A stretch of 64,000 nt of DNA from Octopus vulgaris (Eukaryota), in assembly GCA_951406725.2 (NCBI GenBank), contig OX597820.1, positions 12,958,001 through 13,022,000 on the forward strand, in the 5' to 3' direction. The notes under the pieces were generated by a model that saw nothing but the letters and a program-made list of their open reading frames with translations, was not told the origin of the DNA and ran no database searches. The translations under genes were made by a program, and so were the position numbers. The stretch's first letter is position 1; each line of letters starts with the position of its first letter. This document shows, piece after piece, positions 2,835 through 50,559 of the stretch.

Positions 2835-3190
2835 ACATAAAATCTCCATTGGCTTCAACCACGGTCTTTTGGATGATCTCCTTGTTTAAGTTGCCTTCAG
2901 TTCATATTTGGTATTACAAGGAGTTTTGTTGGTCTCTCGTTCAACTGCGCCTCACATATAAAAATGAAGGCCAGATATTAGGGGTGATGTGGTTGCAGAA
3001 ATAGTCTGACAGCCATGACTGGGTTCTCGTTGCCAGACATAGGGTCTTCCACCAGCCACCGTCTTGACCCAAGCACTTGATGAAGGCCTCCGTGTTAAGT
3101 GTGAGACTGTGTGGGATGATGAATGGAGGCATAACGTCGCCATCATTAGTGATCACTCCAAACTCCATAACGTTGACTGAATGTTTGATT
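2835..3190 (-). pseudogene. Tc1/mariner superfamily (DD37D/maT-like) transposase C-terminal remnant
   Basis: Frameshifted pieces KHSVNVMEFGVITNDGDVMPPFIIP, GRPYVWQ, TQSWLSDYFCNHITPNIWP, VERETNKTP and VVEANGDFM* resemble the DDD catalytic region. Confidence 0.7.
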
Positions 3191-3593
3191 TTCATCATTG
3201 TCGATAGATGTCCTCAGATTTCCCTGACCTCAGATTTATACTCAAATACTCTGACATGTTCGTACTGGAGCTTCCGGCGTATCGTTTCCAAATTTCTGGC
3301 AGAGTGAATTGCATCATGGTGTTGTTTTTCTCACAGATGGTGCCTAACTGACCCTACTATACTGCGTAGTCGACAAAATTAAAACAAAACAATGCACATA
3401 CCCCAAATTACAAGTATAGAATTGCATGCCGTATATATGAGTGAATGCGTGTGTATGTGTGTGTGCCAATTTATATGTGTGTGTATATGTGTGCGTAAGT
3501 GTGGGTGTGTGTGAATATATAGTTGGTTTATAGATGGATATAGCTACCTCACCCATATCTATGAGACTATATTGTTATTTACGTATAACAATA

Positions 3594-3776
3594 GGCGCAG
3601 GAGTGGCTGTGTGGTATGTAGCTTGCTTACCAACCACATGGTTCCGGGTTCATTCCCACTGCGTAGCACCTTGGGCAAGTGTCTTCTGCTATAGCCTCGG
3701 ACCGACCAAAGCCTTGTGAGTGGATTTGGTAGACGGAAACTGAAAGAAGCCCCTCGTATATATGTATATGTATGTA

Positions 3777-3822
<46 letters not shown>

Positions 3823-4027
3823 GTGTTTGTCCCCCCCCCAACATCGCTTGACAATCGATGGTGGTGTGTTTACGTCCCCGTAACTTAGCGGTTCGGCAAA
3901 AGAGACCGACAGAATAAGTACTAGGCTTACAAAGTATAAGTCCTGGGGTCGATTTGCTCGACTAAAGGCGGTGCTCCAGCATGGCCGCAGTCAAAATGAC
4001 TGAAATAAGTAAAAGAGTAAAAGAGTA
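3594..4027 (+). mobile_element. SINE family A, full length (tRNA-derived head, internal (TA)n(TG)n, 3' tail ending in GAGTAAAA repeats)
   Basis: A-box-like TGGCTGTGTGG and B-box-like GGTTCATTCCC. Near-identical copies at 26492, 32206, 39486 and 58441. Confidence 0.9.
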
Positions 4028-5477
4028 TACTCTAATGTAATCATATATATTTGTGTGTGTATTTTGAGTGGTTATATTCAGGAAATAGATAATGGAATGA
4101 GATAGCGGTATTTCTCATATGAAGTTAAACTTGAGTGAAAATTTTGCAGATGTCTATCTACCTGTCAGTTCTCTGCATTTACTATTACGAGAAAATTGTG
4201 AAATTCTGTATCCAAGCTTTTAAATTTGAGAATCATTTTGTTTAAACAAATAACATTAACAAAAATTGCAGCAATTCCGTAATATTTAATTTACTTTGAG
4301 CTATTTTAGTTAATGCTTAAGGTATTTTATATTTTAACGAATAGCTTCAATTACATTTATAAGTCATAAAATTCAAAATTTTATTCATTTAGAAATTAAT
4401 CTTCTAAATTTGAGTATCATTTAGCTTGTAGCGAATAACATTAAGAAAATCTACTGAAATTTGATATTTGTGAATATTGTAGTAAAATTTCAGCTAAGAC
4501 TAATGACGTTTTTGCTAGCATTTAAAGTGTTTTATATTTTAAAATATAATTCCTGTTTCATTTAGACGTCATAAAATTCAACATTTTATTAATTAAAAAA
4601 ATTCAGTTTTATTTACTCTGATAAGATACCCACACATCTTATATTGAAACTTATTTCTTAATGCAAAGTAATTAAGAAGGTACTTAATACATTCTATAGA
4701 GGTGGATGAGAAGCCCTGCTTTCTAAGGAGATGAGGAATATAAGAATTATATTTCATATTTATTGTGAACAAAATGAATGACTGCAAGATGGCCGAATCG
4801 GAAAGCTCCATTGTGGTTTTAGTTTCTCAAGTTTGTCTTTCATCCTTCCGGGGATGATAAAATGTACGACCAAATATTGGCCGGTACTATAGCAAAATTG
4901 CTGACCTGGTTACTAAATCAGAAACCACTGTAAATAAACGAATATACATCGTTGATGGGAAACAAGCAAATTTTAAATGTGTCTTGAGTATACTGTCCAT
5001 TATAAAAGATTTTTTTTTTGAGAATTTAAACACTTAATACACACACAATCACATAAAGATCAAATTTTGGTTTCTATCGTAAAAATTATCTTTGAAATCA
5101 ATTACGTTATACATTATGTATAAACAAAACATGAATGAACTAAAATTCGAATAAGCATAAAATCAGTCGATTAATACGATTAGAGACATTAATTCGATTA
5201 AATGAAAATAAAGAGAAGACTGAAATCAGTTGAATAACTTTAAAGATATTAGTATGTAGATAAAGGGGGAAAGATTGTTTTGATTTGATAGTCAATATTT
5301 AAACAAAATTTAATATCAAAAGCGTTTGATGTGTTTTGGAAAGTACTTATATGTATAAAAATATACTTTCACTTAAATATCATTCCACAGCCCAGATTCT
5401 ATTCCCCATGAACCGTTAGTAAAGGTACTTTCAAACAAGCCATCATAACAACTGCGCTTAGGTTAAAAAGTCACGTA

Positions 5478-8058: not shown

Positions 8059-8740
<682 letters not shown>

Positions 8741-33897: not shown

Positions 33898-34544
33898 TAG
33901 TGGGGGAGCATAAAAGTAGTGGGGGAGCATAAAAGTAGTGGGGGAGCATCAAAGCAGTGGGGGAGAATCAAAGTAGTGGGGGAGCATCAATGCCCTAATG
34001 CACTACCAGGCAGTGGCTCTCATGGCTTCTGATCTTAACTGATTGGAAGTGTTATCATGTACATTGTTTTGTCTTGGTATAAAAGATGGGCTATAGCAAA
34101 TATTCTGCTCAATACCACAGATTTGCTTGTCAGTTGTTTGACCTTAACCAGTTGAGCATGTCCCTTAGTGGCTGACGATATGTGCATCTCTGATCACGAG
34201 CAGAAGTAGTGGGGGAGCATCATAGCCATGTGTTGAGAGCGATTCTTTGGGGTTTGAATAATTCACCTCTGGAAACATGGGTGGTTCTTTCAACATCCTT
34301 AAACAACCCTTATTCAGGGACCTTTTGAGCTGGATGGGCTACTCAACCTGAAGAAAATTTTAACTGGGCCCCACCTGCAAGGTCATGTGCTGTTTATCTT
34401 GATATGAGATCACCATGTCGCGTACATATGGTTGTGATGCATGTGCCTGGTGTACCTTATCAGACGGGTAGTCATGATGGGTATATTGGGCTTCGTATAT
34501 TTTACCCCAGTGTCACTTTGATGGCATGAACTGCTCTCTCATTC
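33898..34544 (+). mobile_element. Non-coding (AAT)n-inserted retroelement, family D
   Basis: Near-identical reverse copy at 46105-46627 and partial copy at 47070-47270. Begins with five roughly 19-20 bp AGTAGTGGGGGAGCAT(C)AAA repeats. (AAT)n on both sides. Confidence 0.8.
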
Positions 34545-34551
34545 AATAATG

Positions 34552-34617
<66 letters not shown>

Positions 34618-42480: not shown

Positions 42481-42809
42481 ACGGTGGTGGTGTGGTGGCT
42501 TCATAGTGGCAATTAGTTGTAAACTAATTTTCCTTTATTAGTATAACGCAATCACATACCCACATCTAGGCAATGTCATATAAATACATTTCGTAGCTCA
42601 AAAAATTTATCATAAGTTCGGTTGATTGTGTTGTTCCATTAAAATAAAGCCAAAATTCGAAGACTACACAGAATTTAGAATCGTAGATTTAATGAGAGAA
42701 ATGACAGAACTGTTAACTAAAATAATCTAATAAAAAGTTAGAACAAGAATCAATGAAGATGAAAATCAAGTACAAAGTAGTTCTACATTCAAGAGATGAG
42801 GAATTATGA

Positions 42810-42963
42810 ACATTATTTACATCATTTACATTTGATGGATATTTGTCCTCATCTTGTTTGTTGTTAACACAACGTTTCGGCTGATATACCCTCCAGCCTT
42901 AATCAGGTGTCTTGGGGAAATTTCGAACCTGGGTTCTCATTCATAACGTGTTTTTCGATGTTG
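42810..42963 (-). mobile_element. HHR-containing tail of SINE family E
   Basis: Matches 49313-49462 and the reverse of 46737-46875. Contains the hammerhead motif at 42866-42911. Confidence 0.85.
42866..42911 (-). ncRNA. Minimal type I hammerhead ribozyme motif (G8U variant)
   Basis: GACAC CUGAUUA A GGCUG-GAGGGUAUAU-CAGCC GAAA CG UU^GUGUU. Stem I GACAC/GUGUU, stem II GGCUG/CAGCC, palindromic ACGU stem III. Confidence 0.7.
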
Positions 42964-43008
42964 TTATTATTATTATTATTATTATTACTATTATTATTAT
43001 TATTATTA

Positions 43009-46036: not shown

Positions 46037-46104
<68 letters not shown>

Positions 46105-46627
46105 GAGTGAGAGAGCAGTTCATGCCATCAAAGTGACACTGGGGTAAAATATACGAAGCCCAATATACCCGTCATGACTACCCGTCTGATAAAGATACAC
46201 CAGGCACATGCATCACAACCATATGTGCGCGACATGGTGATCTCATATCAAGATAAACAGCACATGACCTTGCAGATGGGGCCCAGTTAGAATTTTCTTC
46301 AGGTTGAGTAGCCCATCCTGCTCAAACGGTCCCTGAATAAGGGTTGCTTTAGGATGTTGAACGAAACACCTATGTTTCCAGAGGTGAACCATTCAAACTC
46401 CAAAGAATCCTCTCAACACATGGCCATGATGCTCCCCCACTACTTCTGCTCGTGATCAGAGATGCACATATCGTCAGCCACTAAGGGACATGCTCAACTG
46501 GTTAAGGTCAAACAACTGACAAGCAAATCTGTGGTATTGAGCAGAATATTTGCTGTAGCCCATCTTTTATACCAAGACAAAACAATGTACATGATAACAC
46601 TTCCAATCAGTTAAGATCAGAAGCCAT
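46105..46627 (-). mobile_element. Family D non-coding element, 5'-truncated
   Basis: Reverse complement of 34022-34544, with (ATT)n on both sides. Confidence 0.85.
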
Positions 46628-46648
46628 TATTATTATTATTATTATTAC

Positions 46649-46699
<51 letters not shown>

Positions 46700-46727
46700 G
46701 GTCACTGCTTGGAATCGAACTCGGAAT
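46700..46727 (-). mobile_element. SINE family E head fragment (B-box region)
   Basis: Reverse complement ATTCCGAGTTCGATTCCAAGCAGTGACC matches 49543-49570. Confidence 0.75.
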
Positions 46728-46736
46728 GATACTAAA

Positions 46737-46875
46737 AACATCGAAAAATACCTTATGAATGAGAACCCAGGTTCGAAATTTCCCCCAAGATACCTGATGA
46801 AGGCTGGAGGGTATATCAGCCGAACAACAAAGCAAGACGAGGACAAATAACCGTCAAATGTAAATAATGTAAATA
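46737..46875 (+). mobile_element. SINE family E tail with a partly deleted hammerhead (46789-46825)
   Basis: GATAC CTGATGA A GGCTG..CAGCC GAA, followed by a deletion of the cleavage-site region. Confidence 0.8.
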
Positions 46876-49000: not shown

Positions 49001-49312
49001 TTATATATATATAGGTGTGTGTCTATGTGGATATCTTTATATCAATTATAAAATAAATACTTCCCAAAACACACGCTTTCGGGTTCAGTCCCACAGCGTG
49101 TCATCTTCGGCATGTGTTTTCTACTATAGCCTTGTGCCGACCAAAGCTTTGTGAGTGGATTTGGTAGACGGAAACTGAAAGAAGCGTGTCGTCTATACAT
49201 ATGTTAGCACGTGCATGTCTTTGAGCTTTTAATTTGAGTTTGTAAATTTCTGAAAAAGTAAAGAGCTTGAGGAGACGGAGAGAAGGAGAAGGGTAGGGGA
49301 TATACATGAAGC

Positions 49313-49462
49313 TTATTTACATTATTTACATTTGACGGATATTTGTCCTGATCTTGTATGTTGTTAACACAACGTTTCGGCAGATATACCCTCCAGACTT
49401 CATCAGGTATCTTGGGGAAATTTCGAACCTGGTTTCTCATTCCTAAGTTATTTTTCGATGTT

Positions 49463-49544
<82 letters not shown>

Positions 49545-49614
49545 TCACTGCCTGGAATCGAGCTAGGAATCCTGGGGTTAGTAGCCCACACGCTTAACCA
49601 CTACGCCATATGCC
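49313..49614 (-). mobile_element. SINE family E, full length: tRNA-derived head, (AAT)n(GAT)n spacer, hammerhead-bearing tail
   Basis: Head GGCATA-TGGCGTAGTGG(A box)-TTAAG...TGGGCTACTAACCCCA (anticodon-like arm)...GCTCGATTCC (B box). HHR at 49366-49411. The 3' end has ATGTAAATA repeats. Confidence 0.8.
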
Positions 49615-49627
49615 TATCCGTGAAGCG

Positions 49628-50360: not shown

Positions 50361-50559
50361 ATTAAAATTAAAAGTTAGGTATTTACGAGATACCACCATG
50401 CTGAAAATAGTGGCCATGATCTGACTCTAAAACCACCTTAATTGTCCATATATCATATATTGTTGATATATGGACAATTAAGGTGGTTTTAGAGTCAGAT
50501 CATGGCTGCTATTTTCAGCATGCTGTTATCTCGTAGATACCCTAAATTATAATTTTAAT
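50361..50559. repeat. Near-perfect palindrome of about 200 bp
   Basis: Arms of about 95 bp (e.g. GCCATGATCTGACTCTAAAACCACCTTAATTGTCCATATATCA and its reverse complement) around an 8 nt loop. Confidence 0.92.

Follow-up and report, generated by a model that had tools for sequence, protein, structure and literature searches.

The stretch of the Octopus vulgaris genome analysed here (64,000 nucleotides, hereafter the window) carries on its minus strand, at about 49.4 kb, a short repeat in which a tRNA-like, SINE-type head with A and B boxes is followed by an (AAT)n/(GAT)n spacer and by a "tail" containing a hammerhead motif in the order GATAC-CTGATGA-A-stem II-GAAACGTT-GTGTT (Table 1). An earlier note, made from the sequence alone, had described this unit as a chimeric SINE, and all of its parts were found where that note had placed them. 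The recurrence of the tail at two other places in the window was also confirmed, the match of the second copy covering 42813-42962 (minus strand, 91%). Each copy has its own lesion in the hammerhead, as had been noted: two stem II mismatches in the 49.4 kb copy, a G-to-T change in the core at 42.9 kb, and a 12-nt deletion at 46.8 kb. Three features had been overlooked, namely the 6-bp duplication, the fragment of an inverted head at 46700-46727, and a ~35-nt extension that carries the 42.8 kb copy to 42779.

Table 1. Repeat copies in the window and their parts (window positions, forward-strand numbering)
Feature	Position	Strand	Basis or remark
tRNA-like (SINE-type) head, with the 5′ boundary of this copy	49541..49620	-	letters read directly and genome comparisons
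A box	49598..49608	-	fits the consensus TRGCNNARYGG; column counts
B box, at class I tRNA spacing	49554..49564	-	C at the T54 position in this copy
(AAT)n/(GAT)n spacer	49463..49540	-	length differs among copies; often interrupted by later insertions
"Tail": part of the pseudo-LTR and at the same time the 5′ end of the Penelope-like ORF	49313..49462	-	frame homology to P0003
ATG opening a frame whose translation is homologous to the N-terminus of P0003, an intact relative	49438-49440	-	
Minimal type I hammerhead motif with palindromic ACGT stem III	49366..49411	-	two mismatches in stem II
Predicted hammerhead cut, 49.4 kb copy	between 49371 and 49370	-	
Target-site duplication, 5′ copy, 6 bp	49621..49626	-	
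Target-site duplication, 3′ copy, 6 bp	49307..49312	-	
Second copy: long arm, headless, 5′ end within the (AAT)n run	42779..42970	-	
Third copy: short arm, 12-nt deletion within the hammerhead	46737..46875	+	85%
Inverted arm remnant adjoining the third copy: (AAT)n and 3′ part of the head (46700-46727)	46626..46727	-	

The head is not a foldable tRNA, and ARAGORN reports 0 tRNA genes in the window. The T54 position of the B box, substituted in the window copy, is intact in 59 of 63 copies that begin at the head start (column counts). The Rfam search that the earlier note had proposed returned no tRNA or hammerhead match among 150 of the 211 matches listed for the window, none for two good copies at E ≤ 10, and none for related loci (20 at the gathering score, four at E ≤ 1); the Rfam models are blind to these minimal motifs. 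A weak head-like match at 8278-8297 was rejected, as it comprises just 20 nt and similarity ends there. The window also holds a ~590-bp repeat pair in opposite orientation (34022-34612 and 46037-46627, 94–99% identity), the second member of which adjoins the (AAT)n of the third copy, and a near-perfect long hairpin at 50397-50521, MITE-like or pre-miRNA-like, which stays under the Rfam cut-offs.

The unit belongs to a large family. When the genome assembly (G000; 2.8 Gb in 227 contigs) was scanned, the intact 46-nt hammerhead motif was found in 848 exact copies, against 0 for the reversed pattern. Head and tail are linked genome-wide: besides the window copy, the tail lies downstream on the same strand in 28 of 29 head-anchored loci, and a head match is present in 24 of 29 tail-anchored ones. 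An insertion was met in 12 of 79 arbitrarily placed 10-kb stretches (790 kb), which extrapolates to ~42,000 insertions (95% range 22,000–74,000). Copies are ~91–95% identical to the column majority, and the family is therefore old and decayed; core and stems are intact in 12 of 106 unselected ungapped hammerhead copies. In six of the loci inspected (L219, L227, L240, L251, L257, and L329), the (AAT)n spacer has been hit repeatedly by other short elements, parting head from tail. Seven loci on one contig (L065, L067, L073, L076, L084, L088, and L090 on C31) are 95–98% identical, flanks included, and represent segmental duplicates of one insertion.

Several head copies have in common an upstream region whose translation is recognisable as a GIY-YIG domain end. 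A search with this region gave 2,961 candidates, from which 30 loci were fetched (including seven duplicates of one insertion and the query itself). The head begins ~30 nt past the stop codon of an ORF in 29 of these 30, and the tail comes next in 29 of 30. Upstream of the GIY-YIG end lies a reverse transcriptase (RT) domain (RVT_1, E=1e-10). Since the Pfam search matched RVT_1 and not GIY-YIG, the endonuclease call rests on motifs: DKG, VY..C.C..YKG, and two His, read in natural copies. The ORF is 53–68% identical to long RT-bearing homologues and is a single frame with RT followed by GIY-YIG, the layout of EN+ Penelope-like elements (PLEs). An autonomous PLE with a pseudo-LTR (pLTR) matching the tail, which the earlier note had suggested seeking, is thus present in the same genome.

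The order of the element can be read from individual copies. A near full-length one (L175) has, in direct orientation, tail, ORF, head, spacer, and tail, and the pLTR or partial-tandem layout is seen in L175, in L184, and in 30 loci anchored on the ORF N-terminus. Behind the ORF stop come ~30 nt, the head, and the (AAT)n run; then follow the ORF start, with the hammerhead in frame, the extension, and the remaining ORF. The frame from the ATG at 49440 passes through the hammerhead, and in L326, L340, L341, and L345 it reaches a conserved N-terminal motif. Aligned with the N-terminus of P0003, an intact relative of 847 aa, the tail frame scores 88, while 500 shuffles gave a mean of 28 and a maximum of 55. 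What had been taken for a SINE tail is the N-terminal coding region of the ORF. Mini-tandems, in which a tail and ~150–300 nt of ORF start are followed by a new tail or head-tail unit, occur among L320-L349 (L321, L323, L328, L331, L342, L345, and others); in L328 and L342 the second unit starts at -7, at an identical ORF position in both.

The anatomy of the insertions is also of Penelope type: arms are paired in inverted orientation, one of them is longer by 30–40 nt, and the target is duplicated. Among 58 inverted head-to-head pairs (one counted twice via overlapping loci), 50 consist of one long and one short arm, the long arm carrying the ~35-nt extension. Exact target duplications of at least 8 nt accompany 30 of the 58 pairs, against 1 of 58 mismatched controls, with a median exact match of 8 nt. 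Because of the ORF order, the coding tail, and this anatomy, the unit is identified as the pLTR of an EN+ PLE, and it is near certain that the structure is that of such an element on every structural feature tested apart from the intron and the placement within Penelope/Poseidon. The extra Zn-finger-like linker between RT and endonuclease, which the Penelope/Poseidon clade lacks, was not seen by eye in the ORF-anchored loci. Some PLE families have an intron in the pLTR or 5′ UTR; no sense-strand splice joint was found among 15 of 114 joints listed from RNA-seq; a GT..AG skip on the antisense strand looks like a genomic deletion present in L012.

The earlier note had proposed a SINE mobilised by a PLE rather than by a LINE. 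The partner is indeed a PLE, but no free-standing SINE was found, and the head sits within the autonomous element (29 of 30 loci). Because the head is part of that element, it was in the PLE that the chimera formed, and the short copies represent the pLTR of this PLE. The head probably came from a SINE. It is identical to the head of a resident SINE (in L240) at 49 of 67 aligned positions and to the best of 10 sampled host tRNA types, Arg-TCG, at 44 of 68. Since it is nearer to the resident SINE head than to any sampled host tRNA, capture of a SINE 5′ end is likely on these comparisons, and a direct origin from tRNA-Arg, the best of the 10 types, was rejected for the same reason. The position it occupies corresponds to the promoter site of Drosophila Penelope, in a 3′ UTR that serves at the same time as 5′ region for the copy that follows downstream (PMC2377424, in the part available).

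The head was not found in related elements. A first metagenome scan and a viral scan did not find relatives; 80 related PLE loci (29–48% identity to P0003) were then obtained from metagenome contigs, 34 of them with enough 3′ sequence. None of these 34 3′ regions reaches 8 bits on a host-tRNA profile, which gives 24 matches of 8 bits or more in 30 segments of the head-bearing family. A tRNA-like match in L406, one of the relatives, turned out to come from another short element next to the ORF, outside the 3′ region of the L406 element.

The hammerhead, in contrast to the head, is shared. It occurs in 19 of the 34 3′ regions (shuffled mean 0.17, antisense 0), with stem II sequences that differ yet pair, in ~12 distinct families. 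The earlier assignment of the motif to the minimal type I hammerheads of PLEs is upheld. Covariation within the octopus family was set aside because its copies are decayed descendants of few masters, and stem II variation across families was used in its place; the pairing variants support a ribozyme fold conserved clade-wide. As for activity, a double-hammerhead dimer folds at -20.7 kcal/mol in ViennaRNA, against a dimer minimum of -29.2. In vitro, minimal hammerheads of animals did not cleave as monomers and cleaved at a low level as dimers (PMC4209133, in the part available). By analogy with other animal PLEs, any activity of the octopus motif is likely to be low and to be that of a dimer. 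The 3′ ends of the arms lie ~50–70 nt (short arm) or ~90 nt (long arm) past the predicted cut, and cleavage therefore does not define the template; of 40 5′ ends within the tail, one falls within 4 nt of the predicted site. The predicted cut is thus not what fixes where inserted copies end, and on this point the earlier proposal of a self-cleaving 3′ module has to be amended. Tandem monomers with cleavage-set ends, as in Sm-alpha-like repeats and retrozymes, are not what is found here.

The 5′ ends of copies bear on the function of the head. They were mapped on 224 arms from 130 loci (90 anchored on exact hammerheads in the order of their positions, the 30 loci with the best tail matches, and 10 chosen at random); most loci were picked by hammerhead or tail similarity, and the arms are not fully independent because both arms of each pair were counted. 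Most arms stop short of the head start, 40 of them in the tail, 77 in the spacer or headless, and 27 in the head body. Among the 79 that reach +8 (one duplicate locus dropped), 63 start at -10 to +8, six at -11 to -20, which are probably alignment overrun, and ten run at least 110 nt into the ORF. Per nucleotide, the 5′-end rate reaches 6.6% at the head start and is 0.77% in the head body, 0.44% at a palindrome in the tail, 0.18% upstream of the head, and 0.05% at the predicted cleavage site, i.e., about 36 times higher at the head start than upstream. Genome-wide, 1395 exact 25-mers cover the head start and 631 the sequence just upstream of it, or ~12,700 head-start arms against ~2,200 upstream after correction for decay. 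Furthermore, in the 30 loci anchored on the ORF N-terminus, all three direct arms that have a full A box and continue from the tail into the N-terminal part of the ORF (L324, L332, and L341) start at the head start. This boundary lies ~14 nt ahead of the intact A box.

Because most copies long enough to reach the head start right there, the head is likely a built-in Pol III promoter, and the pile-up of 5′ ends is best read as a Pol III start. We put at about 0.6 the probability that the tRNA-like head is a Pol III promoter within the pLTR and that the element spawns its own SINE-like short copies. In such a cycle, A and B boxes of the TFIIIC type would direct a Pol III start ~7 nt ahead of the first base of the head, and the transcript would span the spacer, the uncleaved hammerhead, and the extension. 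The PLE protein, acting in cis or in trans to mobilise the short copies, would cut the target and then copy such an RNA from one or both ends, and the cDNA ends would be joined head-to-head, to the flank, or by snap-back, self-priming at a small hairpin at -7 to +5.

This hairpin is formed by a 12-nt imperfect palindrome that straddles the head start, and it raises the question of whether any transcription start is needed: an RT stall, or cDNA trimming and snap-back, at the hairpin might truncate copies of long ORF transcripts. The modal end is -7, and 22 of the 63 head-start junctions are full or mini snap-backs on the hairpin. RNA-seq reads that leave the reference at -7 likewise mostly run on as inverted head (loose ends at place 287). 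The other 41 junctions, however, are not on the hairpin and join the flank or another place on the other arm, several with clean target duplications, such as L217 (12 bp) and L285 (13 bp). The palindrome in the tail raises the rate of 5′ ends only about fourfold, far below the value at the head start, and snap-back itself would require a free cDNA end at -7. Truncation at the hairpin is accordingly regarded as improbable.

Alternatively, the family may be a Penelope with an ordinary pLTR in which a Pol II start falls at the head, the head being a passenger or a co-opted Pol II core promoter. The ORF needs translation, which suits capped RNA, and the pile-up marks an RNA or cDNA end by which the polymerase is not named. 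Drosophila Penelope and Chlamys-3 initiate inside the pLTR from an internal promoter, according to the available portions of PMC2377424 and PMC8557442. Against a Pol II start stand the place of the boundary, so close before an intact A box, the intact B box at tRNA spacing, the scarcity of sense-strand T runs described below, and the T-rich tracts that the headless relative L350 has ahead of its hammerhead. A Pol II start is unlikely, though to be taken seriously.

A Pol III transcript would be sensitive to runs of T in the sense strand. The column majority over 2.7 kb contains no run of four T (T4), with depth dropping to 4 near position 200; mononucleotide shuffles lead one to expect 3.7 such runs (P=0.015), while under Markov nulls the deficit is not significant (P=0.14 and 0.21). 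Relatives of like T content average 2.3 T4 runs per kb, with zero in 2 of 26, and 3 of 54 relatives are without T4 over a matched span. The absence is not specific, because the ORF match of L350 (L350:2001-3906) also has no T4 run over 1.9 kb, yet this relative is headless, with a T-rich 3′ region. It thus allows Pol III transcription of the whole element without demonstrating such transcription. That the captured head replaced a Pol II promoter, so that Pol III, starting in the upstream pLTR, transcribes the whole 2.7-kb element and the protein is made from uncapped RNA, is rather doubtful. So, to the same degree, is the corollary that the element would be a protein-coding Pol III retrotransposon combining its own LINE-equivalent with its own SINE.

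Public runs filed under six organism labels contain over half of the sequence words sampled, with no RNA run listed for the window. Transcripts were looked for in three RNA-seq runs of another species (organism E; ~6% of each run, standard libraries). No pile-up of starts is seen at the head in these runs; both strands have equal depth, and the gradient follows copy number. In each run 262–319 reads leave the reference at -7, mirroring the genomic boundary, and these are uninformative on initiation.

An independent chimeric SINE family would have its own masters, be mobilised in trans by the PLE, and keep a self-cleaving 3′ module. When 64 short copies were compared with 46 ORF-linked ones, none of the positions in the head distinguished the two classes at p<0.01, and both classes have a G/A dimorphism at +63 (22 of 63 short, 13 of 36 ORF-linked). 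A tree of 75 rows is star-like and unclustered, with 22 label changes against 22.1 when shuffled, a comparison of little power. Given the lack of differing head positions, the shared dimorphism, and the unclustered tree, the short copies seem to have been produced again and again from the same masters, and no separable lineage of short copies is visible at this power. Head-start copies do outnumber ORF-linked ones by about five to one, and a short copy retaining its A and B boxes could become a source gene. Since, on the other side, the head belongs to the autonomous element, diagnostic positions and clustering are missing, and the ends of copies lie elsewhere than at the cleavage site, an independent SINE family is highly improbable. 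In SINE2 terms, a tRNA-derived head with A and B boxes is present, and a non-autonomous family distinct from a headless partner is not.

Comparison with known systems places most parts of this element on familiar ground. EN+ PLEs of the Penelope/Poseidon type share with it the RT with C-terminal GIY-YIG, the partial-tandem pLTR, the inverted 5′-truncated arm, the one-sided extension of 30–40 nt, and the minimal type I hammerhead in the pLTR, including the extra base between 9 and 10.1 and the palindromic stem III. It differs from the PLEs described in the consulted parts of these sources (PMC4209133, PMC8557442), as from the 34 related loci, in having an A/B-box head in the pLTR with 5′ ends piled at it.

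The earlier note had not recognised the architecture as any standard SINE class. Short retroposons of high copy number in which a type I hammerhead comes after a tRNA-derived promoter of Pol III type are in fact known, namely schistosome Sm-alpha and Sj-alpha (available parts of PMC6765202, PMC2770079, and PMC8490949). Sm-alpha is tandem, and its canonical hammerhead has been shown to cleave and release monomers; in the octopus family, copies are dispersed or inverted, their ends ignore the cleavage site, and the unit lies within an ORF-bearing element, while no autonomous element bearing the Sm-alpha unit is described in those parts of the same sources. TRIMp3 elements (Helenus, Ajax, and Cassandra) likewise carry a small-RNA-derived Pol III promoter in a terminal repeat, proposed to have come through SINE insertion, but they are non-autonomous and have true LTRs, PBS/PPT, and 4–5 bp TSDs (PMC10886601, in the part available). 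The octopus family, with its pseudo-LTR, its head in an autonomous element, and its longer duplications, falls outside TRIMp3.

Non-coding units derived from PLE pLTRs or 3′ ends are known as non-LTR retrozymes (10.64898/2026.07.22.740005) and as non-autonomous Chlamys elements, e.g., MRC1 (PMC8557442), both sources being available in part; the retrozymes, unlike the octopus copies, form head-to-tail arrays, and no tRNA-type head is described for them in the text available. Canonical SINE2 elements combine a tRNA-type head with A/B boxes and reliance on a partner RT, their tail being LINE-derived, and the word Penelope occurs 0 times in the available text (PMC5786205); the octopus family departs from them in its PLE partner, internal microsatellite, PLE-type insertion, and lack of a separate lineage. 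An autonomous PLE with a tRNA-derived pLTR head was not found in the literature searched, and the family may stand under another label in Repbase, Dfam, SINEBase, or the PMC13282606 library. A 2026 octopus repeat paper lists 190 Penelope-like consensus families and, in the part available, does not mention hammerheads. What appears to be new is therefore an autonomous PLE whose pLTR contains a tRNA-type head; a tRNA promoter joined to a hammerhead, a small-RNA promoter in a terminal repeat, and PLE-derived non-coding units were each known.

The short copies likely work like a SINE without the independence of a SINE from its partner. Should the head indeed function as a Pol III promoter, SINE-like copies would have arisen here by the reverse of the textbook route, the autonomous element taking up the head and giving off the short copies, and their motor would be a Penelope-type enzyme and not a LINE. 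An element of this kind would also suggest a possible source of Sm-alpha-like repeats with a tRNA promoter and a hammerhead, a link absent from the text consulted. If the head is a passenger, what remains is a decayed Penelope family of the ordinary sort that carries a curious insert. The family offers insertions in the tens of thousands that can be dated, together with a likely fixed RNA 5′ end, and so provides a handle on the unsettled transposition cycle of Penelope, as arms, extension, and snap-back priming can all be read from the insertions. Repeats of this kind would in practice be mis-annotated as SINEs.

Other hammerhead-bearing repeats were encountered during the genome scan. A second repeat with a minimal-hammerhead-like motif and a pyrimidine-rich tract upstream, at L110, L155, and L197, has no visible tRNA-like head and is probably another PLE family. 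In L091 (G000:C1:20000001-20010000), tandem units of 353–359 bp occupy 3082-4560 (plus strand) and an inverted minus-strand block, each with a type I hammerhead-like motif and a 2-nt palindromic stem III insert; this array looks like one of non-LTR retrozymes, not related to the Penelope-like family with the tRNA-like head.
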